DNA from: a virus
DNA: 64,000 nt
Reading direction: 5' to 3' (one strand)
Virus record (IMG/VR): IMGVR_UViG_3300042352_001346
Location: 1 to 64,000 of that record
In this document: in pieces, positions 47,087 to 60,445 of the stretch
Numbering within the stretch: the stretch's first letter is position 1
How the letters are laid out: the number at the start of each line of letters is the position of its first letter
The notes under the pieces: model-generated
Told to the model about the DNA's origin: nothing
The model's database searches: none
Seen by the model: the letters and a program-made list of their open reading frames with translations, nothing else
Made by a program: the position numbers and the translations under genes

Positions 47087-48457
47087 ATGAATTTAAGTAA
47101 AGACTTTTTATTAGAATTATTAAAAACTTGTTTTAGAAATAAGGAAATACTAGATATTGCTTATCATCATTTAGAGTATCATTATTTACCTTCTGAACCA
47201 TATAAAGATGTTTGGAAGGAAATTAGAGATTTTTATATTTTAAATGATAATTGTCCAAGTTTTGGTTATATTTCTCAAAGATTAACTGATTTAAAAAAAG
47301 AAGAAGCATTAAATTTACTTGTAAAAGTAAAAGAAGCATCTATACCTGATTTAAAATATTTAATCAATCAATTTGAAGAGTTTTTAATAAATATTATAAC
47401 AATTGATTCTTTGCAAGAAATTGTTACATTATTTAATACAAATAAAAAAGATGAAGCAAGAACAAAACTATTAGAAAAATCAAAGAAAATTGAAAATTTC
47501 ACTTTAGCCAAAGGTTCTAATTTTTTTGAATCATTATTTGGTGGATTTGTTCAAAGACAAGAATTAAGAAAGATAGAAGCAGGAGATTTGGGATTAAGGA
47601 AAAAAACACATAGAGGTATTGACCAAATAGATGATTTAACTTTTGGTGGATTACCTGAGACTGATATGGATTTATTTATCTTTCCTTCTGGTTATGGTAA
47701 AACAACTTATTTAAGATGGCGTTCTCAATATAATGCAAGATTAGGTTTTAAAGTATTATATGTTAATCTTGAAGGTTCAAAACAAGATAATGAAGAAGGT
47801 CATGATGCTGTTTTAACAGGTAGAACTTTATTTGATGTTGAAAGAGGTAATTTAAGTGATAAATTTGTAGATGAAATAAATAATAGTTTACAATATTTAT
47901 TAAATAATATTGGAGGTGATGTTATTTATACATCTGTAGAACAATTTGGTGAGTATTATTTACATGATTTAGAAAAAGATATTCAACGTTTTATTAAAGT
48001 ACATGGTCAATCACCAGATGAAATAGATTTAGATTATTTTGAAGCTTTAGAAATTAAAGGAAAATATGATAAAAATACCATTCAAGGTGAAAAAGCTAGA
48101 AGAACAGCACTAGCTAAAGGATTGAAAAATTTATGTGTAAAATATAAAACTAGATTAGCAACTTGTACACAAGCTTCTGATGTTAGTATAGATAAATTAA
48201 ATACAGCTGATAGTGTATTAACAAGAAATGATTTATCTGCTAATAAAGCATTATTGAATGAATTTTCATTTTTATTTAGCTTTAATCAAACATCAGATGA
48301 ATATGATGAAGGTAGAGCAAGAATTTTTTGTGATAAAGCAAGAAAATCTAAAAGAGGTTGGACTGTTCAAATATATCAAGATTTAGAACATTTGAAATTT
48401 TATGATAGATTTAAAACTCTTACCACCTTATACCAAAGAGGTGATTTTATAATATAA
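47087..48457 (+). CDS. Replicative SF4 (DnaB-like) helicase
   Basis: SGYGKT, VLYVNLE, LDY, TCTQ, DKAR; adjacent to primase. Confidence 0.85.
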   Translation: MNLSKDFLLELLKTCFRNKEILDIAYHHLEYHYLPSEPYKDVWKEIRDFYILNDNCPSFGYISQRLTDLKKEEALNLLVKVKEASIPDLKYLINQFEEFLINIITIDSLQEIVTLFNTNKKDEARTKLLEKSKKIENFTLAKGSNFFESLFGGFVQRQELRKIEAGDLGLRKKTHRGIDQIDDLTFGGLPETDMDLFIFPSGYGKTTYLRWRSQYNARLGFKVLYVNLEGSKQDNEEGHDAVLTGRTLFDVERGNLSDKFVDEINNSLQYLLNNIGGDVIYTSVEQFGEYYLHDLEKDIQRFIKVHGQSPDEIDLDYFEALEIKGKYDKNTIQGEKARRTALAKGLKNLCVKYKTRLATCTQASDVSIDKLNTADSVLTRNDLSANKALLNEFSFLFSFNQTSDEYDEGRARIFCDKARKSKRGWTVQIYQDLEHLKFYDRFKTLTTLYQRGDFII

Positions 48458-48473
48458 AATTTTAAGAGTTCTA

Positions 48474-48505
48474 TTTGGACTTTTAAAAAATTTTTATTAC
48501 TTTTG
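48474..48505 (+). promoter_or_regulatory. Bacteroidota-type promoter abutting the primase ATG
   Basis: TTTG-N20-TACTTTTG. Confidence 0.55.
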
Positions 48506-48506
48506 T

Positions 48507-49520
48507 ATGAGATTCAAAGAAGATGAAATAAAGACAGAATTTAAATTAAAAAAAAGTGGTAATAAAGGATGGTTTTTATCATATAATAATTGTCCTTATT
48601 GTAATAAAACTGAACATTTATCTATTATATTTGGTGAAGTAAGTAGTTTTACTTGTAAAAGGTGTGGTGAACATGGTTCTTTGTATAAATTACTTGAAAA
48701 AGTAGATAGAAAAGATTTAATATTAGGTAATAAAGATTTTATTTCTACTAATAATAAAATTGAAGGTATAAATGAAAATATAATTTCAACAAAAGTATTT
48801 GATTTTAATCTTCCAATTAAACAAAAACCATTAGGATTTATACGAATTTTTGAAAATGATTATTTAGAATCAAGAAATTTTACTAAACAACATTTTGAAA
48901 TTTATACAATAGGAATAAGTACTTTTGACCCATTTGTAAATAAAGATTATATAATATTTGTATGTAATCAATTTAAAAATGAAGTTGGTTGGTTAGCTAG
49001 AAGTAAAAAATCAAAAGAAGAAATTGATGCAATAAATGTTATTCGTAAACAAAAAGAATTACCTAAGTATTTAAGATGGCAAAATAGTATTGATACTGAT
49101 TTTTCAAATATCTTATTTGGTTTTGATGAATTAGAAGAAAATACAAAAATTGTTATTGTAGTTGAAGGTGTTACAAGTAAAGCAAATGTTGATAAATTAT
49201 TAGGTCTTTTTAATCAAAAAACTGTTAAATGTGTAGCTTCATTTGGTAAAAAAATTACAGATTTTCAAATTGCTTTATTAAAAAGTAAAAATATTGAAAC
49301 AGTAATTTTACTTTATGACCCAGATGCAGTTAAAGAAATAAAAGAATATAGTTTTAGACTTGAAGATAATTTCGATAATGTATTAGTAGGCTTTATACCA
49401 TTTAAAAAATCAGATGGTAGTAATAAAGACCCAGGTGATTTAATTAATAGTGAATTAGATAAAGTTATGAATACATTACAAAGTCCAATAAACTTTTTTA
49501 CTGAAAAAATTAAATTTTAA
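48507..49520 (+). CDS. DNA primase (Zn finger + TOPRIM)
   Basis: CPYC...CKRCG, YLESR, VVEG, YDPDA, KDPGD. Confidence 0.88.
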   Translation: MRFKEDEIKTEFKLKKSGNKGWFLSYNNCPYCNKTEHLSIIFGEVSSFTCKRCGEHGSLYKLLEKVDRKDLILGNKDFISTNNKIEGINENIISTKVFDFNLPIKQKPLGFIRIFENDYLESRNFTKQHFEIYTIGISTFDPFVNKDYIIFVCNQFKNEVGWLARSKKSKEEIDAINVIRKQKELPKYLRWQNSIDTDFSNILFGFDELEENTKIVIVVEGVTSKANVDKLLGLFNQKTVKCVASFGKKITDFQIALLKSKNIETVILLYDPDAVKEIKEYSFRLEDNFDNVLVGFIPFKKSDGSNKDPGDLINSELDKVMNTLQSPINFFTEKIKF

Positions 49521-50021: not shown

Positions 50022-51098
50022 ATGAATAATAAATTATTTTTAACTGATTTTTCTTTTGAAGAAAGTGAAATTGTTGTAACTCCTGTTAATTTTGATTTAA
50101 CATGTTCTTATGGTTTAGGAACGGCTAAAGGTCCAAATTCTTTAATAAAAGAATCAGTTCAAATTGATAATCACTTCCTTAATAGGAAACATAATTCAGT
50201 TGAAGAACCTGCTAAATTCTTTTTAAATAAAGGAGAAATTATTAATGAAATTGCTAAAGCTAATTCATCTTTACGCAAAAGTGTTAATTTATATTGGGAT
50301 ATGGTAGATGAAACTTCTAAAGGAGTTGAAGAAACTGACCAAATAAAAGAACGTAAAAAATTTATTATTAATAGTGTAAATCAATTGCAATCAAATATAT
50401 TTACTATTACAAATTTAATTACAGAAAATGTATTAGAAAATAATAAAATACCTTGTATAATTGGAGGAGACCATTCAATAATTGAAGGTGCTTTATTTGC
50501 TATTGATGAACAATATAAAGATAATTATAATATTTTACAAATTGATGCTCATTGTGATTTAAGAATAGGAGGATATGAAGGATTTGAAAAAAGTCATGCT
50601 TCAATTATGGCAAATATTCTTAGTAATAATATTAATGTAAAATCTTTGGTACAAGTTGGTATTAGAGATTTTTCTAAAAATGAATATAATTTAACTTCAA
50701 TAACTCCTAGACAAGAATTTACAAATAAATATTCACCTACACCTATTTATAAATTTTTAGATGAATATATAGCAGAAGCTGATTATTCATTTAATGGTGG
50801 TGGGTATTTACATAATATTGTTGAAAAAATAGCTTCTGTATTTAATGTAAATAAATGTAAGAATATTTATTTAACATTAGATGTTGATGGTTTAATTCCT
50901 TCTCTTTGTTCCAATACAGGTACACCTGTACCAGGTGGTTTAGATTTTAATAAAGTATTGTTTTTAATTAAAAAATTAAAAGAATGGGGTTTTAACTTTA
51001 TTGGTTTTGATATAGTTGAAATTGGAAATGATAAATTTGATGGTAATGTAGCAAGTCGTTTATTGCATCAAATTGGTAATATAATTACAAAATATTAA
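50022..51098 (+). CDS. speB: Agmatinase-like ureohydrolase
   Basis: GGDHS, DAHCD, SHAS, DVDG...TGTPVPGG, DIVE metal ligands. Confidence 0.88.
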   Translation: MNNKLFLTDFSFEESEIVVTPVNFDLTCSYGLGTAKGPNSLIKESVQIDNHFLNRKHNSVEEPAKFFLNKGEIINEIAKANSSLRKSVNLYWDMVDETSKGVEETDQIKERKKFIINSVNQLQSNIFTITNLITENVLENNKIPCIIGGDHSIIEGALFAIDEQYKDNYNILQIDAHCDLRIGGYEGFEKSHASIMANILSNNINVKSLVQVGIRDFSKNEYNLTSITPRQEFTNKYSPTPIYKFLDEYIAEADYSFNGGGYLHNIVEKIASVFNVNKCKNIYLTLDVDGLIPSLCSNTGTPVPGGLDFNKVLFLIKKLKEWGFNFIGFDIVEIGNDKFDGNVASRLLHQIGNIITKY

Positions 51099-51109
51099 AA
51101 ATAAATTTT

Positions 51110-52132
51110 ATGATTATAATTAATGAAAAAAATGGTTTAGCTAAAATACAAAGTATATCAAATTTTATAGAAAAATATATGTTGCATTTTAATGGTGCAA
51201 ATATGGTTGCTTCTGCAAAATCATTGAAAAAACATTTAGATGGTGGTGGTAAATTAATTATTACATTAGCAGGTGCATTTTCTACAGGTGAATGTGGTAA
51301 ATTATTAGCCCAATTAATTAAAGAAGATAAAGTACATGCAATTTCATGTACAGGTGCTAATATTGAAGAAGATGTTTTTCGTTTATTAGGACAAAGTCAT
51401 TATGGATTTAATTTAAAATATAATGATTTAACACCTCAACAAGAACAAGAGATACTTGATAATGATGTTAATCGTGTTACAGATACAATTATACCTGAAA
51501 AACATGTAATTGATATTCTTTATAAAGGTCTTGATGAAGTTTGGTTTGGAGAGTATGAGCGTAGAAAAGCTAAAGGTAAAATGTGGCATGAATATTTTTA
51601 TGAATTATTTAGTAATAATTATATTCAAGAAAATTTAGATAAAGATGCAGTATTAGAAGATAGTTGGTTATATCAAGCTGCACTTAAAAATTTACCTTTA
51701 TGTGTACCTGGAAATTGTGATAGTACAATGGGTAATGTATTTGCTCAACTTGTAATGGAAGAAGATATTGAAAGTTGGATAATTAAACATGATAGTGAAT
51801 ATATGGTTAGAATGGCTAATTGGTATATTGAATGTTGTAATAATGGTCAAAAATTAGCTATGTTAACTTTAGGTGGTGGTATATCAGCTGATTTTCCACA
51901 AACTATTAGTCCTTTTGTTGTAAAAGATTTAAATCATCCAAATGGTGCTGTTTGGTCACATATGACAGTAGTAACAATGGATATGTCTGTAACTGCAGGA
52001 GGTTTTAGTGGTTGTGCATTAAATGAAAAAATAACATGGGCTAAATTAGGTGTTGATTCAGATAAATTTTTAATCAATAGTGATTTTAGTATTGTATTTC
52101 CTTTAATTGCAGCATATTTATTGGAATTATAA
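51110..52132 (+). CDS. Deoxyhypusine synthase-like protein (SpeY / aminobutyltransferase type)
   Basis: TGANIEED, NRVTD, DSTMGN, GGGISADF, GGFSG...EKITWAKL (catalytic Lys). Confidence 0.9.
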   Translation: MIIINEKNGLAKIQSISNFIEKYMLHFNGANMVASAKSLKKHLDGGGKLIITLAGAFSTGECGKLLAQLIKEDKVHAISCTGANIEEDVFRLLGQSHYGFNLKYNDLTPQQEQEILDNDVNRVTDTIIPEKHVIDILYKGLDEVWFGEYERRKAKGKMWHEYFYELFSNNYIQENLDKDAVLEDSWLYQAALKNLPLCVPGNCDSTMGNVFAQLVMEEDIESWIIKHDSEYMVRMANWYIECCNNGQKLAMLTLGGGISADFPQTISPFVVKDLNHPNGAVWSHMTVVTMDMSVTAGGFSGCALNEKITWAKLGVDSDKFLINSDFSIVFPLIAAYLLEL

Positions 52133-52147
52133 ATAATTTAAAAGAGA

Positions 52148-52179
52148 TTTGGAAGTTTTAAAAAAGGTTTTTATTTTTG
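52148..52179 (+). promoter_or_regulatory. Bacteroidota-type promoter
   Basis: TTTG-N20-TATTTTTG. Confidence 0.7.
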
Positions 52180-52204
52180 TATAAGAAAATTAAATATTAA
52201 TAAA

Positions 52205-53176
52205 ATGCAAAGAAAAGTAAAGTCAATATTAACGACAGCTATTTTTGACGACCCTATAGTTAGTTTAGGCAAATTAGATATGCCAGTATATGCAATGGTT
52301 CCTCCTCTTGGATTTCATGCTAATAATGTAGAAAATAATTATATGAGGTCACTATCTGATGAAGATAGAAAAGTTGATAAAAGACTTTATTTGCAACAAT
52401 GGGGAGATATTTATAGTTATTTAGCTGCTAACTCTTTAGTTTATTTAATTCCAAATCCAAATGAAGATTTACCTGATTTAACTTATTGTTCAAATATTGG
52501 TGTTTGTCTTGATGATGTTGAAGATGGTAAAGTATTTATAGCAAGTAATTTTTCTGCTAAATCAAGAACAGGAGAAACTGCAGTTGGTTATAATTTCTTT
52601 AAATCTATGGGGTATGAAGTTCATGAATGCCCTTATAAATTTGAAGGTTCTGCTGATATGAAACAAATTAAACCTGGTGTTTGGGTTGGTGGATATGGAG
52701 TAAGAACTGAAAAAGAAGCTTATGATTGGATGGAAGAAAAATTTGGCATTAAAATTATAAAAGTAAAAATGCTTAATGATGATTTATATCATCTTGATTG
52801 CTGCTTTATGCCAATTACTAAATTATCTGCTTTATGTTGTAAAGAATGTTTTAGTAAAAAAGATATTGAAACAATTGAAGAAGAAACCGGTATTTATTTA
52901 TATAATATACCATTACAATATGCTGAATATGGTGGTACTAGTTGTATAAGAATGTATAATTCATTATTATTTGCATCTTCACTTGATTATGAAATACCAG
53001 GTACCGAAGAATATGAAATTGAAAAAGGTAAATGTGATTTAATTGAAGAAATTGCATCAGAAGAAGGTCTTGAAATTGTTTACTTTGATATGTCAGAAGG
53101 TTGGAAAGCGGGAGCGGACATGTCGTGCTCATTTTTGGAAATAAACCGTAATTCTTTTAAAATAGATTTACAATAG
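52205..53176 (+). CDS. Pentein (amidinotransferase / arginine dihydrolase-like)
   Basis: PDLTYCSN, R.GE, FEGSAD, YHLDCCF, GADMSC; Asp-His-Cys triad. Confidence 0.85.
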   Translation: MQRKVKSILTTAIFDDPIVSLGKLDMPVYAMVPPLGFHANNVENNYMRSLSDEDRKVDKRLYLQQWGDIYSYLAANSLVYLIPNPNEDLPDLTYCSNIGVCLDDVEDGKVFIASNFSAKSRTGETAVGYNFFKSMGYEVHECPYKFEGSADMKQIKPGVWVGGYGVRTEKEAYDWMEEKFGIKIIKVKMLNDDLYHLDCCFMPITKLSALCCKECFSKKDIETIEEETGIYLYNIPLQYAEYGGTSCIRMYNSLLFASSLDYEIPGTEEYEIEKGKCDLIEEIASEEGLEIVYFDMSEGWKAGADMSCSFLEINRNSFKIDLQ

Positions 53177-53278
53177 CAGAGAAGAAACTGCCATGATTAG
53201 TGTTTTTTTAACCTACTTGGCACTTAAGAAAAACTTACAACCAGTTTTATAGCTAGTTGTTTAAAATTTAAATTTATT

Positions 53279-54031
53279 ATGTCTTATTCAATAGAACATT
53301 TCGTAAGAACAATAGTTGAACCTGCAAAACGTAAAGGTAAAAAATATCTATCAGAAGAATTTTTTTACCGCAATCCCAATAGACCGCAAAAAATAAATTC
53401 CAATTATTTTTATGCACCATCAGATGGTATTATAATTGGAATGAAAGAAGTAATGCTTAAAGATAGTATTTGTGAAATAAAGGGAGAAGCATATACTTTA
53501 GATGATGCAATGGGTGGAAGATTATCTGATGAAGATTATGGTTTTCGTTCTAAAGATAAATTTTTAGTTGTTGAAGTATTTTTAACGATGTATCATGTGC
53601 ATTATACTCGTGTACCTTATGGTGGTATTATTAATACAGAATATTTACCTCCTATTTTAACTCAAAATCTTCCTATGTTAAGTATGGAAAATGACTTATT
53701 AAAAGGAATTGTAAATATGAATAATGCTGATTATTTATTTAATAATTATAGAGCATTTCAATCAATTTATAATCCAAAATTTCAAATTAATTATTTTGTA
53801 TTAAATATAGCTGATTATGATGTTAATGCTATAATTTCTCATCATCAAGACGGGGATTTAATTGGACAAAATGATATACTTGGTGCTATGCAATATGGTT
53901 CGCAAGTAACTTTAATAGTTCCAAAACCTAAAAAATATGATGATTATGATTTAATATTTAATTCTAATCTTAAAGTTGGTGATTGTATTGAAGGTGGATT
54001 AGATTATTTAATTGAATTTATAGATAAATAA
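53279..54031 (+). CDS. Phosphatidylserine-decarboxylase-fold pyruvoyl decarboxylase, no TM anchor
   Basis: FFYRNPNR, APSDG, IKG..Y, FL..YHVH..RVP, YGSQV self-cleavage site. Confidence 0.8.
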   Translation: MSYSIEHFVRTIVEPAKRKGKKYLSEEFFYRNPNRPQKINSNYFYAPSDGIIIGMKEVMLKDSICEIKGEAYTLDDAMGGRLSDEDYGFRSKDKFLVVEVFLTMYHVHYTRVPYGGIINTEYLPPILTQNLPMLSMENDLLKGIVNMNNADYLFNNYRAFQSIYNPKFQINYFVLNIADYDVNAIISHHQDGDLIGQNDILGAMQYGSQVTLIVPKPKKYDDYDLIFNSNLKVGDCIEGGLDYLIEFIDK

Positions 54032-54080: not shown

Positions 54081-54476
54081 ATGTTACTAGTAGCAACACG
54101 TTTGGACGTATCTCCACTTATTCCAGCAGACCATAAGAAAAAAATTGGTTTGTTTGCAGATGAATTAATTCCTGCAGGTACTAAAATTTGGGAATTTACA
54201 AAAGGTATTGATAAAGAAGTATCAGAAACCAATGTAAATAAATTGCCTAAATTGCAAAAAGATTTTGCAAATAGTCAATATCCATGGACAGAAAAGTATT
54301 ATCTTATTTATGGAGATAATACAAGATTTATTAACCATTCAGAAGAACCAAATGTTGGTGAAGAAGGTGATTACCTTGTAGCCTTAAAAGATATTCAAGT
54401 TGGAGAAGAACTTGTATCTGATTATAGAACATTTGAAGAAAATTTTGAAGAATTTAAAGCAGAATATTTTAATTAA
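54081..54476 (+). CDS. SET-domain methyltransferase
   Basis: GLFA...I.AG, RFINHSEEPN, GEELVSDY. Confidence 0.9.
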   Translation: MLLVATRLDVSPLIPADHKKKIGLFADELIPAGTKIWEFTKGIDKEVSETNVNKLPKLQKDFANSQYPWTEKYYLIYGDNTRFINHSEEPNVGEEGDYLVALKDIQVGEELVSDYRTFEENFEEFKAEYFN

Positions 54477-54494: not shown

Positions 54495-54536
54495 AAGCAA
54501 CAAGAATGTATTTATTGCATTCTTGTTGCTTTTTTA
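54495..54536 (+). terminator. Rho-independent terminator
   Basis: AAGCAACAAGAATG...CATTCTTGTTGCTT plus T-run. Confidence 0.85.
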
Positions 54537-54554: not shown

Positions 54555-55061
54555 ATGATATTATCATCAGAAAAAATATTAGAAAGAGACCTTTTACAAA
54601 CTAATGGTAAAGGTGAAGCACAACAATGTGGTTATGATTTAACCCTTTGTAGAGTAACTCAAATACAAGGAAATAGTTTTATTGGAAAAGATAAATCTTT
54701 TATTCCTGAATATATTGAGATTGAAACTGATATATATGTATTTCCTGATGGTAGTAAAAGAGAAGGATGGCATTTATTACCTGGTATTTATAGTTTAACT
54801 TATGAACAAGGTTGTAAATTAGATGCTAGTCATAATGCAACAGTAAAAAATCGTAGTTCTATGCAAAGAAGTGGTACTTTGATAGAGTCTGGTAAGTTTG
54901 ACCCTGGTTTTTCATGTGATAAAACAGGTTCTACAATGTTTGTTTTTTTACCAATTACAATTGAATTTGGTGCTCGTATATCACAATTTGTAGTATCTGA
55001 AAATTATCCTACAGAAAATTTATATAATGGTCAGTATCAAGGTGAAAAAGATAGAAAATAA
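54555..55061 (+). CDS. dCTP deaminase / trimeric dUTPase family
   Basis: GYDLTL, RSSMQRSG, FDPGF, ARISQ, YNGQYQ; ATG 54555 lies downstream of the terminator. Confidence 0.82.
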   Translation: MILSSEKILERDLLQTNGKGEAQQCGYDLTLCRVTQIQGNSFIGKDKSFIPEYIEIETDIYVFPDGSKREGWHLLPGIYSLTYEQGCKLDASHNATVKNRSSMQRSGTLIESGKFDPGFSCDKTGSTMFVFLPITIEFGARISQFVVSENYPTENLYNGQYQGEKDRK

Positions 55062-55074
55062 ATAAATTTATTAT

Positions 55075-56025
55075 ATGGCAGTATTACTTAAAACATCATC
55101 ATTAAGTTATGATGATGTTACTTTATTAGCACAATTAGGAGTTGTAGATAGTAGAAAAGAAGTACCTATTGAAGGTAATCGTATAGTTGTTTCAGCTATG
55201 ACTAGTATAATTGGACCTGCTTTTATTAAAGCAGTTGCAAGTATTTCTCATAATTGGCAACCTACTCTTCATATTCCAAGGGATGAATATAAATTTGAAA
55301 ATGTAAATTTATGTAAAAAATATAATTTAAAAAATATATTTATAGGTGTTGGTTTGAAAGAAGATATTGGATTTGAAAATCATGTATTGTTTCTAACAAA
55401 TTACAGAGTAGCTTTTATAGATATTGCAAATGGTTATTTACCTCAAATAAAAGAACGTGTTAATCAGTTAAAAGCTAAAGGATTTGAAAAAGTAATTTGT
55501 GGTTCTGTACATACTAAAGAAGGTGTAGAATATTTATCTAATTGCGATGTTGATATAATTCGTACAGGTATAGGTACATCTTCATCTATATGTTCTACAC
55601 GTTATACAACAGGATTTTATAGAGCAACAATTTCTGAATTATTAGAATGTTGCCCTTATGCTTATAATGAAAGAAAGTTAATACTTGCAGATGGTGGTTT
55701 TAAATATGTAGGTGATTATGCAAAAGCATTCTTAGCTGGAGCATCTTATTGTATGGGTGGAAAATTATTTACTAATTGTAGAGAAGCAAGAATGCATGTT
55801 GATGGTACAGGTGAATATGTAGGTATGTCAAATCCAGTTAAAGGTGTATCAAATAGTGGTTTTGATGAAAGTTTTTCTGTTAAAATACCACCTCCTACTA
55901 AAGATTTACATGATGTGATAAGAGAAATATGGGATGGTTTACGTTCTGCAGTTTCTTATTCAGGATATAATACCTTAGAAAATGCTATTGGTAATGGTGT
56001 TTTTGAACAAAAAATAAAATTGTAA
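55075..56025 (+). CDS. guaC: GMP reductase / IMPDH family
   Basis: SYDDV.L, IDIANG, GIG...ICSTR, ADGG, GLRSAVSY; no CBS domains. Confidence 0.8.
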   Translation: MAVLLKTSSLSYDDVTLLAQLGVVDSRKEVPIEGNRIVVSAMTSIIGPAFIKAVASISHNWQPTLHIPRDEYKFENVNLCKKYNLKNIFIGVGLKEDIGFENHVLFLTNYRVAFIDIANGYLPQIKERVNQLKAKGFEKVICGSVHTKEGVEYLSNCDVDIIRTGIGTSSSICSTRYTTGFYRATISELLECCPYAYNERKLILADGGFKYVGDYAKAFLAGASYCMGGKLFTNCREARMHVDGTGEYVGMSNPVKGVSNSGFDESFSVKIPPPTKDLHDVIREIWDGLRSAVSYSGYNTLENAIGNGVFEQKIKL

Positions 56026-56983: not shown

Positions 56984-59900
56984 ATGGAATTAAAGCAATG
57001 GATTCAAAATAATAATTTAGATGTAAAATTTATAGATAGTTTTACATTAAAATGTGATGAAAAATTATTTAGAATAGTATTTCCTAATAATGAGGATATA
57101 TTATTTGATGATAATTTTTCATTAGTTTTGGATGATAGTGATAAGAATTTTGATTGTGATTTTTATTTATTTGAATTTGGAAATAAATGGTTTTATATAG
57201 ATAAAATTCAATGGAAAAAACCTAAGTTAAAATTATTTAAATATGTTGGTAAATCTATTAAAAATAGTTTATCTAATGCATTACCATTTGCTCATTTAGG
57301 TTTGAGAGGTAAATATGAAATTTTAAATGGTTCAGGTGATTATGAAAAATATTGCAAAAAATGTAATTTTATAAATGGATATGGTTTAGGTATTTGTGAA
57401 AAAAATACATTAGCAGGAGTAGTTGCTTTTCAACAAGCATGTGAAAAAAATAAAATTAAAGGTTGTATAGGTATGACCATTGATTGTAAATTTGATGATG
57501 AAACTGATTCATGTGAGTGTAAAGTATTTGTTGTAGATAAAATTGGATGGAAACATATTTTAAAACTTAGTGCTTTAATAAATATACATGAAAATAAATA
57601 TATAACTGAACAACAATTATTAGATAATTCATCAGGATTAATATTTATTTTTGGTAATAGAGCACCTTTAAATGAAAGACGTATAGAAGTTTTTAATATT
57701 GCTTTTTATGAAGTTTATTATCAATTTGATAGTGTTGTTTGGGAAAGTGATAGAATAGATATGATTCATCTTGCTAATATGAAAGATTATATTGAATTGT
57801 ATAGAAATAAATTAAAACCAATTTTATTAAATGATAGTTATTATATAGATGAAGAAGATTTTGAAGTAAAAAAAATATTAAATAAAATTGGTAATAGAAG
57901 ATTTCAAAACGATAGTAAGAATCAATATTATCAATCATTAGAAGATATTATTGCTTATTTAGACCCTTTGTTTAAAAATAAATCATTATTAGAAGATTTA
58001 TTTATTTCTTCATTATTAAATACTAAAACTTTATTAGATAATTGTGAATTTAAATTAGAATTAAATAAACAATTCTTTATACCAAAATTTAGCACTGCAC
58101 ATTTATCTAGTGAATATCCAAAAGATAATAATGCTTTATTCTTTTATTTAATTAATAAAGGAATGAAAGCTAAAGGTATTGAAAATAATATTAAATATTT
58201 ACAAAGACTTGATGAAGAATTAGAAGTAATAATGAAAGGAGGATTTGTAGAATATTTTTTAATTCTTTGGGACGTAATTAGATGGTGTGAAGAAGAAAAA
58301 GATATATTAACAGGTATTGGCAGAGGTTCAGCTGCAGGTAGTTTAATTGCATTTTTATTAAATATTACTAGAATAGACCCTTTACCTTATGATTTATTAT
58401 TTAGTAGATTTTTAAATGCTGGTCGTATAGGAAAATCATTACCAGATATAGATACAGATTTTGAAGGTGAAAGACGTGAAGAAGTAAAACAATATTTAGA
58501 ACAAATGTATGGTAAAAACTTTGTTTGTAGTATTGGAAGTTTTAATGCATTAAAATTAAAATCAGGTCTTAAAGATTTAGGACGTATAAGTGGAATTGAA
58601 TTTAATTATGTAAATGTAATAACTTCATCTTTAAATCCTAAAGAAGGTAGAGATGCTGAAATAGAAGAATTATTTATTTTAGCATTAGATATGGAGAAAA
58701 AAGGTAAACCTGGTGTTAAAGATTTTATTAAAAAATTTCCACGTATAGCTAATAATTTATATCTTTTATTAGACCAACCAAAATCACCTAAAGTGCATCC
58801 TTGTGCAACTATTATTTTACCAAATGCAAATGATGGTGAAGATATATTTGATAAAATACCTCTTAGAAAAGATGGCGAAGTATTAATTTCTATGTGGGAA
58901 GGTGAATATCTTGAAGCATTAGGTTATCTTAAAGAAGATATACTTGGAATTGCTCAACTTGATAAATTTGGCATGATTTTAAAATTAATCAAAAAACATA
59001 CAGGTAATAAAATTGATATTTATAATCTTCCAGTTGATGATATTAAAGTAATTGATTTTTTTCAAAAAGGATTAACAGGTGATGTTTTTCAATTTGGTAG
59101 TATAGGATTAACTAAATTTTGTAAAGAAGTTAAACCATATAATATAGAAGAATTAATTAATATGGTTGCTCTATACAGACCAGGTCCAATTGGTTCAGGA
59201 GCACATACCAAATATATTAAAGTAAAAGAAGGTAAAGAACAACCTGATTATGATTTTAATTTAAAGGAAGTAACAGAATCTACTTTTGGTTTGTATATAT
59301 TTCAAGAACAAGTAATGAAAGCTTGTGGTATATTAGGTGGATTTAATGGAATTGAAGTTGATGATATTCGTAAGGGAATGGGTAAAAAATTAATTAAAGT
59401 ACTAGAACCTTATAAAAAAAGATTTGTTGATAATGCAGTTAAATTAGGTTGTGAACAAATAGAAGCTGAAAAAATATGGGATAAGTTAGAATTATTTTCT
59501 GGATATGGTTTTAATAAATCACATGCTGCTTGTTATGCAATGATGGGGTATATTTCACAATGGTTGAAAGTATATTATCCTCTTGAATTTTGGACTAGTG
59601 CATTTCAATTTTGTAAAAATGATAAAGAAGGACAAATAACAGAAAGAAGATTTTTATCTGAAATTAAAAAAACAACTAATTTAAAAATTGTACCTCCTGA
59701 TATTAATAATAGTACATTAAATTTTGAAGCTGACCCTAAAAGATTTAAAATATATTGGTCTTTATCAAGAGTTAAATTTTTAGGTGAAGTAGGTCTTGAT
59801 GTTTTATTATTAGAACGTGAACAAAATGGTAAATTTTTCTCAATTGAAGAATTTACAAAAAGATTACCTAAAGCTTTTATTAATAAAAGAATTGTAATTT

Positions 59901-60445
59901 GTTTGATTTTATCAGGTGCATTTGATGATATGTATAATATTATGAATCCTTTAGATAGGAAAATAATATTAGATAAATTTTATGCAGTTTCAGGTAATGC
60001 ACAAGATGAAAAAATTATAGATTATTCTCTTATAAATAAAGAATGGTATTGGGTAATGAAACAAATGGAGTTTAGTGGTTTAGGTGATATTAATTATAGA
60101 AAATTAGCTGAGGAAAATGGTTTTGGTAATTTAGTAAATAATTATATTGATTCCTATGAATTACAAAGAGAAAGCAATGTAAAACAAAAGGTAACTATGG
60201 GTGGTATTTTAAAAAAAGTTACTACAAGGTCAAGTCAAAAAGGTCCTTGGGGTGTATTAGATTTAGATAGTAACAATGAACAAATACAAGTATATTGTTG
60301 GAATGCAGAATGGACAAGTTTAAAAGAAGAAATACTTAAATCTGTTGAAAAACCATTTATTTTTACAGGAGTAGTACAATTTAATGCTTATAGTCAAACT
60401 AATATTATACATTTACAAAATAATTCAGTAACTAAATTTTTATAA
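56984..60445 (+). CDS. dnaE: DNA polymerase III alpha (family C)
   Basis: GRGSAAGSL, PDIDTDF, KEDILG, LYRPGP, YGFNKSHA, PPDIN, C-terminal OB fold. Confidence 0.95.
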   Translation: MELKQWIQNNNLDVKFIDSFTLKCDEKLFRIVFPNNEDILFDDNFSLVLDDSDKNFDCDFYLFEFGNKWFYIDKIQWKKPKLKLFKYVGKSIKNSLSNALPFAHLGLRGKYEILNGSGDYEKYCKKCNFINGYGLGICEKNTLAGVVAFQQACEKNKIKGCIGMTIDCKFDDETDSCECKVFVVDKIGWKHILKLSALINIHENKYITEQQLLDNSSGLIFIFGNRAPLNERRIEVFNIAFYEVYYQFDSVVWESDRIDMIHLANMKDYIELYRNKLKPILLNDSYYIDEEDFEVKKILNKIGNRRFQNDSKNQYYQSLEDIIAYLDPLFKNKSLLEDLFISSLLNTKTLLDNCEFKLELNKQFFIPKFSTAHLSSEYPKDNNALFFYLINKGMKAKGIENNIKYLQRLDEELEVIMKGGFVEYFLILWDVIRWCEEEKDILTGIGRGSAAGSLIAFLLNITRIDPLPYDLLFSRFLNAGRIGKSLPDIDTDFEGERREEVKQYLEQMYGKNFVCSIGSFNALKLKSGLKDLGRISGIEFNYVNVITSSLNPKEGRDAEIEELFILALDMEKKGKPGVKDFIKKFPRIANNLYLLLDQPKSPKVHPCATIILPNANDGEDIFDKIPLRKDGEVLISMWEGEYLEALGYLKEDILGIAQLDKFGMILKLIKKHTGNKIDIYNLPVDDIKVIDFFQKGLTGDVFQFGSIGLTKFCKEVKPYNIEELINMVALYRPGPIGSGAHTKYIKVKEGKEQPDYDFNLKEVTESTFGLYIFQEQVMKACGILGGFNGIEVDDIRKGMGKKLIKVLEPYKKRFVDNAVKLGCEQIEAEKIWDKLELFSGYGFNKSHAACYAMMGYISQWLKVYYPLEFWTSAFQFCKNDKEGQITERRFLSEIKKTTNLKIVPPDINNSTLNFEADPKRFKIYWSLSRVKFLGEVGLDVLLLEREQNGKFFSIEEFTKRLPKAFINKRIVICLILSGAFDDMYNIMNPLDRKIILDKFYAVSGNAQDEKIIDYSLINKEWYWVMKQMEFSGLGDINYRKLAEENGFGNLVNNYIDSYELQRESNVKQKVTMGGILKKVTTRSSQKGPWGVLDLDSNNEQIQVYCWNAEWTSLKEEILKSVEKPFIFTGVVQFNAYSQTNIIHLQNNSVTKFL

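Follow-up and report, generated by a model that had tools for sequence, protein, structure and literature searches.

What does a phage make with a protein of the phosphatidylserine decarboxylase (PSD) fold that has no membrane anchor and is encoded next to a pentein resembling an arginine hydrolase? This question is raised by IMG/VR virus record IMGVR_UViG_3300042352_001346 (80.9 kb, estimated to be ~64% complete), of which positions 1 to 64,000 (hereafter, the window) were analyzed. The G+C content of the window is ~25%, and its plus strand holds nearly all of the long open reading frames (ORFs). An earlier note on this DNA had read the two genes as a pair under its own promoter and as a possible new class of amino-acid decarboxylase. 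Our comparisons support the conclusion that the pentein and the PSD-like protein form one conserved, functionally tied two-enzyme unit that is widespread in phages and bacteria (a point absent from the earlier note), and we consider it probable that the pair converts L-arginine to a diamine precursor for polyamines. The pair is laid out in the window as follows.

52205..53176, plus strand: ArgZ/DDAH-type pentein (323 amino acids), predicted to hydrolyze a guanidino group, most likely as an arginine dihydrolase
53177..53278: 102-nucleotide (nt) spacer separating the pentein gene from the PSD-like gene and containing an 8-bp stem-loop (53237-53260)
53279..54031, plus strand: soluble PSD-fold proenzyme (250 amino acids; PF02666, 61 bits), a predicted pyruvoyl-dependent amino-acid decarboxylase

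Conservation of the gene pair in phages and bacteria

An exhaustive homologue search returned 204 cluster representatives of the PSD-like protein (E ≤0.001); a pattern scan of IMG/VR yielded 31 loci, and a scan of one genome per prokaryotic species yielded 80. In all 31 viral loci, a pentein gene lies within 1.6 kb of the PSD-like gene (28 penteins were recognized by ORF clustering and those of loci L024, L025, and L028 by tblastn), and the two genes abut or overlap in 27 of them, with both gene orders occurring. Overlap is the arrangement in most related loci, unlike the 102-nt gap of the window. The pentein and PSD-like genes of L027 and L032 flank an agmatine-deiminase-family gene (hereafter, PENT-AIH-PSD), a ~1.1 kb insertion splits the pair in L022, and L030 is rearranged. 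About 20 of the viral loci come from T4-like phages that are related to one another and share the gene order gp23, pentein, PSD-like, PhoH, and the pair occupies at least five viral settings in all, including the replication module, this gp23-pair-PhoH arrangement, and PENT-AIH-PSD.

Among GenBank phages, matches to each of the two genes came from 39 Campylobacter-phage and 6 Bacteroides-phage records (the two lists were compared by totals only), and the pentein had two more weak matches. Gene order in Bacteroides phage SJC03 is that of the window (helicase, primase, pentein, PSD-like, dUTPase/dCTP-deaminase-like [hereafter, DCD-like], and GMP-reductase-like), with 36–42% identity between the proteins. 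The two genes are 93 kb apart in Campylobacter phage CPX, and both are retained.

Bacterial genomes show the same linkage, with a pentein gene ≤3 kb from the PSD-like gene in 72 of the 80 loci and ≤300 nt from it in 69. By record titles, these 72 loci span at least 10 phyla; the taxa comprise Verrucomicrobiota, Acidobacteriota, Actinomycetota, Campylobacterota, Gemmatimonadota, Alpha-, Beta-, and Gammaproteobacteria, and single metagenome-assembled genomes of several other phyla. Of the eight loci without a pentein, L036 and L110 lie at contig ends, L113–L115 are distant PSD homologues (25–30% identity), and L060, L103, and L112 had room for a pentein yet none was found.

Catalytic residues and folds of the two proteins

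PF02666 recognized the PSD-like protein at 61 bits against a cut-off of 22 (60.5 bits when the whole record was searched), and all NCBIfam PSD equivalog models stayed far under their cut-offs (best 52.7 bits vs 183). A profile built from 77 relatives matched the beta chain of Escherichia coli PSD, the best solved relative (PDB 6l06, 7cnw), at E 2.4e-12, and the tryptophan decarboxylase PsiD weakly (E about 0.01). Motifs common to the E. coli enzyme and the phage protein are FFxR...RP, PADG, and KG. The profile alignment pairs Asp49 (codon 53423-53425) and His108 (53600-53602) with Asp90 and His144 of E. coli PSD; Ser208 is equated with Ser254 solely from its place in the motif (the PDB beta chains stop before the cleavage site). 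The GS cleavage site and conserved His that had been read from the sequence are borne out: Gly207-Ser208 (codons 53897-53902) and His108 are, like Asp49, invariant in all 85 PSD-like relatives of 225–300 amino acids from the loci. In E. coli PSD, Asp90, His144, and Ser254 drive self-cleavage, and His144 acts in decarboxylation as well (Cho et al., PMC7952604). The phage protein is likewise predicted to cleave itself at Gly207|Ser208 to yield a pyruvoyl cofactor.

The two enzymes differ in several respects. Tyr137 of E. coli PSD, a phosphate ligand (PMC7952604), is replaced by Phe101 here and by Phe in 84 of the 85 relatives, and the LGST motif of the E. coli enzyme is replaced by GSQ. The three N-terminal amphipathic membrane helices of E. 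coli PSD have no counterpart: the profile match begins at about residue 64 of that enzyme, past these helices. The peak 19-residue hydropathy of the phage protein is 0.85 and no membrane segment is present, in agreement with the claimed absence of a membrane anchor. None of 83 pair-type relatives exceeded a hydropathy of 1.6, leaving aside the distant matches L114 and L115; a hydrophobic 19-residue stretch was restricted to these two, which lack a pentein. Compared with canonical PSDs, the family also carries a specific insert with invariant Asn130, Met133, and Glu137, and further invariant acidic residues. Family-specific positions were compared with five canonical PSD ORFs, two of which were miscalled in high-GC DNA and gave unusable columns. 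Arg111 was dropped from the family-specific residues because short canonical PSDs have it too.

Each of five pair-bearing bacterial genomes tested has a separate canonical PF02666 gene, scoring 143–164 bits vs 83–101 for the paired copies. The three canonical PSDs that could be read cleanly contain a hydrophobic segment with hydropathy >1.7 (1.7–2.0), located at about residue 22 in two of them. With regard to lipid synthesis in the phage, the statement that no phosphatidylserine synthase is nearby holds for the CDP-alcohol type (PF01066), none of which was found in the 80.9-kb record; the PLD type was not searched for. These comparisons support the view that the PSD-fold protein is a predicted soluble paralogue and not the housekeeping lipid enzyme.

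Copy number and architecture vary among the relatives. The Allokutzneria oryzae genome encodes three paired-type PSD-like copies (83–90 bits) plus one canonical PSD. Among the long relatives P0025, P0057, and P0018, one PSD-like protein has an intein bearing a LAGLIDADG endonuclease, and others are apparent fusions to an anti-CBASS Acb1 domain or to VapB-like and ADP-ribosyltransferase domains; these forms may be read-through gene calls on phage contigs. Two long relatives, P0017 and P0136, were ruled out as PSD-pentein fusions on inspection.

The pentein motifs that had been likened to ArgZ are all present (PDLTYCSN, FEGSAD, and YHLDCCF) and align to PDMVFTAN, FEGAGD, and YHLDTCF of the cyanobacterial enzymes ArgZ (Sll1336) and AgrE (Alr4995), that is, to shared PD..(F/Y)..N, FEG..D, and YHLD.CF patterns. 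Solved structures of these two enzymes (PDB 6juy-6jv1, 6lrf-6lrh) include the best pentein matches (6juy-6jv1 and 6lrf; E 4e-19 to 5e-15, with residues 30–207 aligned). Both differ from the phage protein in being ~700 amino acids long, fused to an ornithine cyclodeaminase-like domain, and without a decarboxylase partner. All NCBIfam scores of the pentein are far under the cut-offs (Arg_dihydro 83.4 bits vs 450; ArgZ 83; DDAH 76), and on these comparisons it is a relative of ArgZ/AgrE, not an orthologue.

Among the 78 relatives of 270–380 amino acids from the loci, seven pentein residues (Asp91, Asn97, Arg121, Glu147, Arg167, His196, and Cys308) are present without change in all 46 bacterial sequences and in 31 of the 32 viral ones. 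The lone exception (77 of 78 conform) is a degenerate second copy in L007. Asn97 aligns with the Asn altered in the ArgZ mutant chain 6juz, and we take it to be the Asn that distinguishes ArgZ. Asp91, Arg121, and Arg167, which have a DDAH-like spacing, presumably occupy the DDAH-type positions that bind the alpha-amino and alpha-carboxylate groups. We predict that the pentein is an ArgZ-like Cys-His-Glu hydrolase of the guanidino group on an intact alpha-amino acid. The second pentein of L007 (9129-10001) lies just before the PSD-like gene and no longer has the catalytic His and Cys or the two conserved Arg; an intact pentein is encoded 5 kb upstream, beside ureohydrolase and deoxyhypusine synthase (DHS)-like genes. 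The second copy looks like a decaying duplicate.

Gene neighborhood and transcription signals

The surroundings of the pair in the window contain the following features.

47087-49520: DnaB-like helicase and primase, the upstream flank of the enzyme cluster
50022..51098, plus strand: agmatinase-family ureohydrolase (SpeB-like, 358 amino acids; PF00491, 137.9 bits), a candidate bis(guanidino)homospermidine or agmatine ureohydrolase
51110..52132, plus strand: DHS-family protein (SpeY-like, 340 amino acids; PF01916, 116.5 bits), a candidate homospermidine-pathway aminobutyl transferase
52133..52204, plus strand: 72-nt gap ahead of the pentein gene, containing TATTTTTG at 52172-52179
54081..54476, plus strand: SET-domain protein (131 amino acids; PF00856, 51 bits), the last gene before the hairpin
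54495..54531, plus strand: terminator-like hairpin with a 16-bp stem and a 5-nt loop, followed by TTTTTT
From 54483: DCD-like protein, a TTG-started ORF with a probable ATG at 54555
55075-56025: GMP-reductase/IMPDH-like protein
56984-60445: Pol III alpha gene, the downstream flank

The ureohydrolase and DHS/SpeY-like genes upstream of the pair share a polyamine theme and were missed by the earlier note, whose feature started at 52148, inside the 72-nt gap upstream of the pentein. The ureohydrolase scored 110 bits with the TIGR01230 agmatinase model (cut-off 174), and its best PDB matches are agmatinases (3lhl, 3pzl). Its translation contains GGDHS, DAHCD, and DVDG, which we take to be the arginase-type metal-ligand motifs. 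For the SpeY-like protein, the top NCBIfam model was 'homospermidine biosynthesis protein' (92 bits vs a cut-off of 450), every NCBIfam homospermidine or DHS model was under its cut-off, and the PDB matches were archaeal and human DHS. The PF01916 and PF00491 genes are 11 nt apart in the window, and the two occur together alongside the pair only in the window, L005, and L007. The four enzyme genes and the SET-domain gene, ending at the hairpin, look like one polyamine (homospermidine) cluster. The SET-domain gene was a singleton in the ORF clustering, without a counterpart in the related loci examined.

L027 and L032 are small complete phage genomes with the three-gene PENT-AIH-PSD set (the L032 record is 49.7 kb and 100% complete). 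No DHS/SpeY-like gene was found in either record, nor was an arginase-family or CN-hydrolase gene found anywhere in them.

Neighbors in the bacterial loci were counted by clustering and, with ORF calling crude in high-GC loci, the counts are lower bounds. A MatE transporter gene was seen in 36–37 loci and follows the pair within 5 kb in at least 36 of 80, an ABC exporter gene follows it in at least 14, and an ArgB gene was found in six. In L069, L078, and L087 (Hoeflea, Hyphomicrobiales, and Hyphomicrobium), an operon carries, in this order, genes for the PSD-like protein, the pentein, a SpeE-like aminopropyltransferase, an ABC exporter, and ArgB (a second copy), with an agmatine-deiminase-like gene beside it; this arrangement looks like a polyamine synthesis-and-export cluster. 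Taken as a set, the MatE/ABC, agmatine-deiminase-like, SpeE-like, ArgB, and SpeY-like neighbors belong to arginine/polyamine metabolism or cation export.

The proposal that the pair has its own promoter was not upheld. Sigma-70-like matches were fewer than expected by chance (49 vs 58.5 ± 7.5 in shuffled sequences), and a sigma-70 promoter for the pair was rejected because such matches are rarer than in the shuffles. In the 72-nt gap, a single TAnnTTTG box lies 33 nt ahead of the pentein ATG, and this motif is only ~2.3-fold enriched among the intergenic gaps of the window. The box, TATTTTTG at 52172-52179, is a weak match to the Bacteroidota -7-box consensus and provides no evidence of a promoter. 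Terminator-like sites were found five times vs 1.2 ± 1.2 in shuffles. The one at 54495-54531 has the longest stem and is the strongest of the region; it lies between the SET stop codon and the probable DCD-like ATG at 54555, and divides the five upstream genes (ureohydrolase to SET) from the DCD-like and GMP-reductase-like genes. Alignment with the SJC03 homologue begins at residue 25 of the TTG-started DCD-like ORF, the position of its first ATG.

Possible routes from arginine and competing explanations

Within the probable conversion of L-arginine to a diamine precursor, we favor the order in which the pentein (arginine to ornithine) precedes the decarboxylase (ornithine to putrescine), although our confidence in this order falls slightly short of even. 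The pentein would convert arginine to ornithine, CO2, and two NH3, and the PSD-fold enzyme, once self-cleaved at Gly207|Ser208, would decarboxylate ornithine to putrescine. This diamine would feed the synthesis of polyamines (in this phage, homospermidine), and the cluster would presumably raise the supply of polycations for replication and DNA packaging. Phages require polyamines to replicate, to translate their proteins, and to package DNA, and polyamine biosynthesis is a classic example of convergent evolution. Because Asp91, Arg121, and Arg167 are invariant and presumably have the same roles as in DDAH-type enzymes, the pentein substrate would retain its carboxylate, so that the pentein would act before decarboxylation. 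This order would also account for the strict co-inheritance of the two genes, since it makes the pair a complete route, and a spermidine-synthase-like gene directly after the pentein in three alphaproteobacterial loci counts for it as well. Where an Orn/Arg/Lys decarboxylase had been proposed, a basic-amino-acid decarboxylase in a two-step pathway stands as the best reading, but lysine is indicated by no neighbor. The alternative proposal of a small guanidino-amine product did not hold up, as nothing favors it over putrescine or agmatine.

Several points weigh against this reading. The residue roles that order the steps are presumed, and the assignments of both proteins were made by sequence alone, with all NCBIfam scores well below the equivalog cut-offs. 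Many of the 31 viral loci are close kin and amount to about five independent settings, not 31 observations. A DCD-like gene follows the pair in the window, SJC03, L007, L030, and L105, which a polyamine function leaves unexplained. The recurring SpeY-like, ureohydrolase, and agmatine-deiminase-like neighbors all use agmatine-type substrates. SpeY itself joins two agmatines, bacterial SpeY clusters include an arginine decarboxylase (ADC; PMC13625781), and arginine is the substrate of the sole PSD-fold enzyme characterized as acting on a basic amino acid (PMC12904898). Together, the agmatine-type neighbors and the latter precedent favor arginine over ornithine as the decarboxylase substrate, which would make the role of the pentein obscure. 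AR-fold, AAT-fold, and archaeal pyruvoyl decarboxylases were also searched for in the five pair-bearing bacterial genomes; the alphaproteobacteria G005 and G006 each have a 394-amino-acid gene product resembling ornithine decarboxylase (ODC), which could be either an ODC or an ADC.

The PSD fold has been repurposed before, as previously noted for PsiD; this precedent was confirmed and a second one, Ao-ADC1, can be added, so the phrase 'new decarboxylase class' no longer applies, with PSD-fold enzymes for arginine and tryptophan already characterized. As described in a review of agmatine production by Aspergillus oryzae, Ao-ADC1 of this fungus belongs to the PSD family, cleaves itself at Gly441|Ser442, and decarboxylates arginine without PSD activity, and crystal structures show its pyruvoyl-agmatine Schiff base (PMC12904898). 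It resembles the phage protein in its PF02666 fold, Gly-Ser cleavage site, and solubility (PDB 9JER, 9JF5, 9JFN), and differs in being fungal and 483 amino acids long, with an N-terminal helical region, a GGST motif, and no pentein partner, whereas the phage and bacterial family has ~240 amino acids and a GSQ motif. PsiD (PDB 8zia, 8x4q) likewise applies the PSD fold to a free amino acid, and its weak match covers the PADG-like and His motifs, but it is a distant fungal relative that acts on an aromatic substrate in psilocybin biosynthesis.

Among pathway-level comparisons, SpeY homologues join two agmatine molecules into bis(guanidino)homospermidine, from which SpeB-like ureohydrolases produce homospermidine (Li et al. 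2026, PMC13625781). The SpeY-SpeB-ADC clusters described there resemble the window, L005, and L007 in placing a DHS homologue beside an agmatinase homologue and a decarboxylase, and differ in that their ADCs are of the alanine-racemase fold, SpeD-derived, or archaeal pyruvoyl enzymes. In the text of that paper, 'phosphatidylserine', 'phage', and 'virus' each occur zero times, and no PSD-fold enzyme or pentein appears. Phages are known to encode SpeD-derived pyruvoyl ornithine/arginine decarboxylases that boost putrescine or agmatine, but these have the different AdoMetDC fold (Li et al. 2023, PMC9992855). The survey of viral polyamine enzymes in the same paper recorded a single phage homologue of agmatinase and none of SpeY in viruses or phages; the excerpts consulted make no mention of phosphatidylserine decarboxylase, Campylobacter, or Bacteroides. 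In literature outside subscription journals and supplements, we found no report of a phage or bacterial PSD-fold amino-acid decarboxylase or of a pentein/PSD pair.

PSD-fold enzymes acting on amino acids, ArgZ-like hydrolases, and SpeY-type homospermidine genes are thus already known; their combination in a conserved, uncharacterized module is new, as are the association of the pair with SpeY-like and SpeB-like genes and the agmatine-centered counter-argument given above. We tentatively propose, with more doubt than for the order of the two steps, that the module is an undescribed arginine-to-putrescine route (an ArgZ-like dihydrolase plus a soluble PSD-fold ODC) that is present in at least 10 bacterial phyla, in many cases beside an exporter, and that unrelated phages have acquired again and again, and that the window contains the first phage SpeY-type homospermidine pathway. 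If so, the pair would be another non-homologous route to putrescine or agmatine, and the repurposed PSD fold would extend from fungi to bacteria and phages. Hundreds of genes labeled 'phosphatidylserine decarboxylase' or 'amidinotransferase' would have to be re-annotated, including those of biocontrol Campylobacter phages and gut Bacteroides phages, and the four-gene cluster would be evidence that the agmatine/SpeY homospermidine pathway can be phage-borne.

The main rival is the reverse order of steps, which we think less likely. The PSD-fold protein would be an ADC producing agmatine, two molecules of which would be coupled by the SpeY-like protein before the ureohydrolase frees homospermidine, with the pentein acting downstream on a decarboxylated guanidino or ureido amine and replacing NCPAH by turning agmatine or N-carbamoylputrescine into putrescine. 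Ao-ADC1 demonstrates that a PSD-fold ADC exists (PMC12904898), and bacterial homospermidine clusters join SpeY, which uses agmatine, and SpeB to an ADC of varying fold (PMC13625781). The window, L005, and L007 hold SpeB-like, SpeY-like, and PSD-fold decarboxylase genes, the window being the strongest case, and agmatine-deiminase-family genes lie inside or beside the pair in four phage loci (L005, L007, L027, and L032) and six bacterial loci. Five phage records, of which two are 100% complete, yielded no NCPAH-type CN-hydrolase, and no CN-hydrolase was found within 150 kb of the pair operon in Hoeflea; because none was found, another enzyme would have to take off the carbamoyl group. Agmatine and N-carbamoylputrescine, however, have no carboxylate, and the pentein Asp and two Arg that in related enzymes bind the alpha-amino and alpha-carboxylate groups are kept in 77 of 78 sequences. 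Agmatine-deiminase-like neighbors were seen in only 10 of ~113 loci, hosts usually own an ADC, and the family profile had no match to the Ao-ADC1 chains at E up to 10. A different exported amine is improbable: here, the pentein would be an amidinotransferase, or the decarboxylase would act on citrulline, lysine, or a modified arginine, to yield a guanidino or ureido amine. The MatE and ABC exporter genes after the pair (36 and 14 of 80) recall secreted-metabolite clusters, the Campylobacter-phage pentein is labeled 'amidinotransferase' in GenBank, and the pentein-less locus L060 (3452-6402) has the PSD-like gene followed by genes for a double-GNAT acetyltransferase and an ABC membrane protein. 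The label is only a family name, though, and the nearest solved relatives, ArgZ and AgrE, are hydrolases that share the aligned Asn; SpeE-like, ArgB, agmatine-deiminase-like, and SpeY-like neighbors indicate ordinary polyamine intermediates. L060 itself may represent a variant pathway in which the amine is acetylated.

Two further explanations lie outside arginine metabolism. That the pair acts with the DCD-like and GMP-reductase-like genes to modify nucleotides or DNA, for example in the deoxyinosine DNA of Campylobacter fletcherviruses, is very unlikely and is suggested only by these neighbors, in one phage lineage, and by the replication-module setting: the order pentein, PSD-like, DCD-like, GMP-reductase-like is common to the window and SJC03 and partly to L007, L030, and L105, and the CPX pentein sits between the gp41 helicase and gp45 clamp genes. 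Fletcherviruses replace deoxyguanosine with deoxyinosine, and the route to dITP is still merely an assumption (PMC13091555). None of the 37 records with a GMP-reductase-like match is a Campylobacter phage, the T4-like pair lies between the capsid gene and PhoH, the 72 bacterial loci are accompanied by exporters and polyamine/arginine genes, not nucleotide genes, and in the window the hairpin separates the cluster from the DCD-like gene. Least probable of all, to the point of being nearly negligible, is a true phosphatidylserine decarboxylase whose task would be to remodel the lipids of the host membrane. The PF02666 match and the database names point to such an enzyme, but the protein has no membrane-binding region, its phosphate-binding Tyr is replaced by Phe, the PSD equivalog models score far below their cut-offs, all five pair-bearing bacterial genomes tested have a separate canonical PSD, and a lipid function would give no reason for the strict pairing with an arginine-type hydrolase.

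Beyond the hairpin, the DCD-like and GMP-reductase-like proteins of the window share 37% and 42% identity, respectively, with those of SJC03, and the two enzymes could change the supply of guanine nucleotides by converting GMP to IMP.

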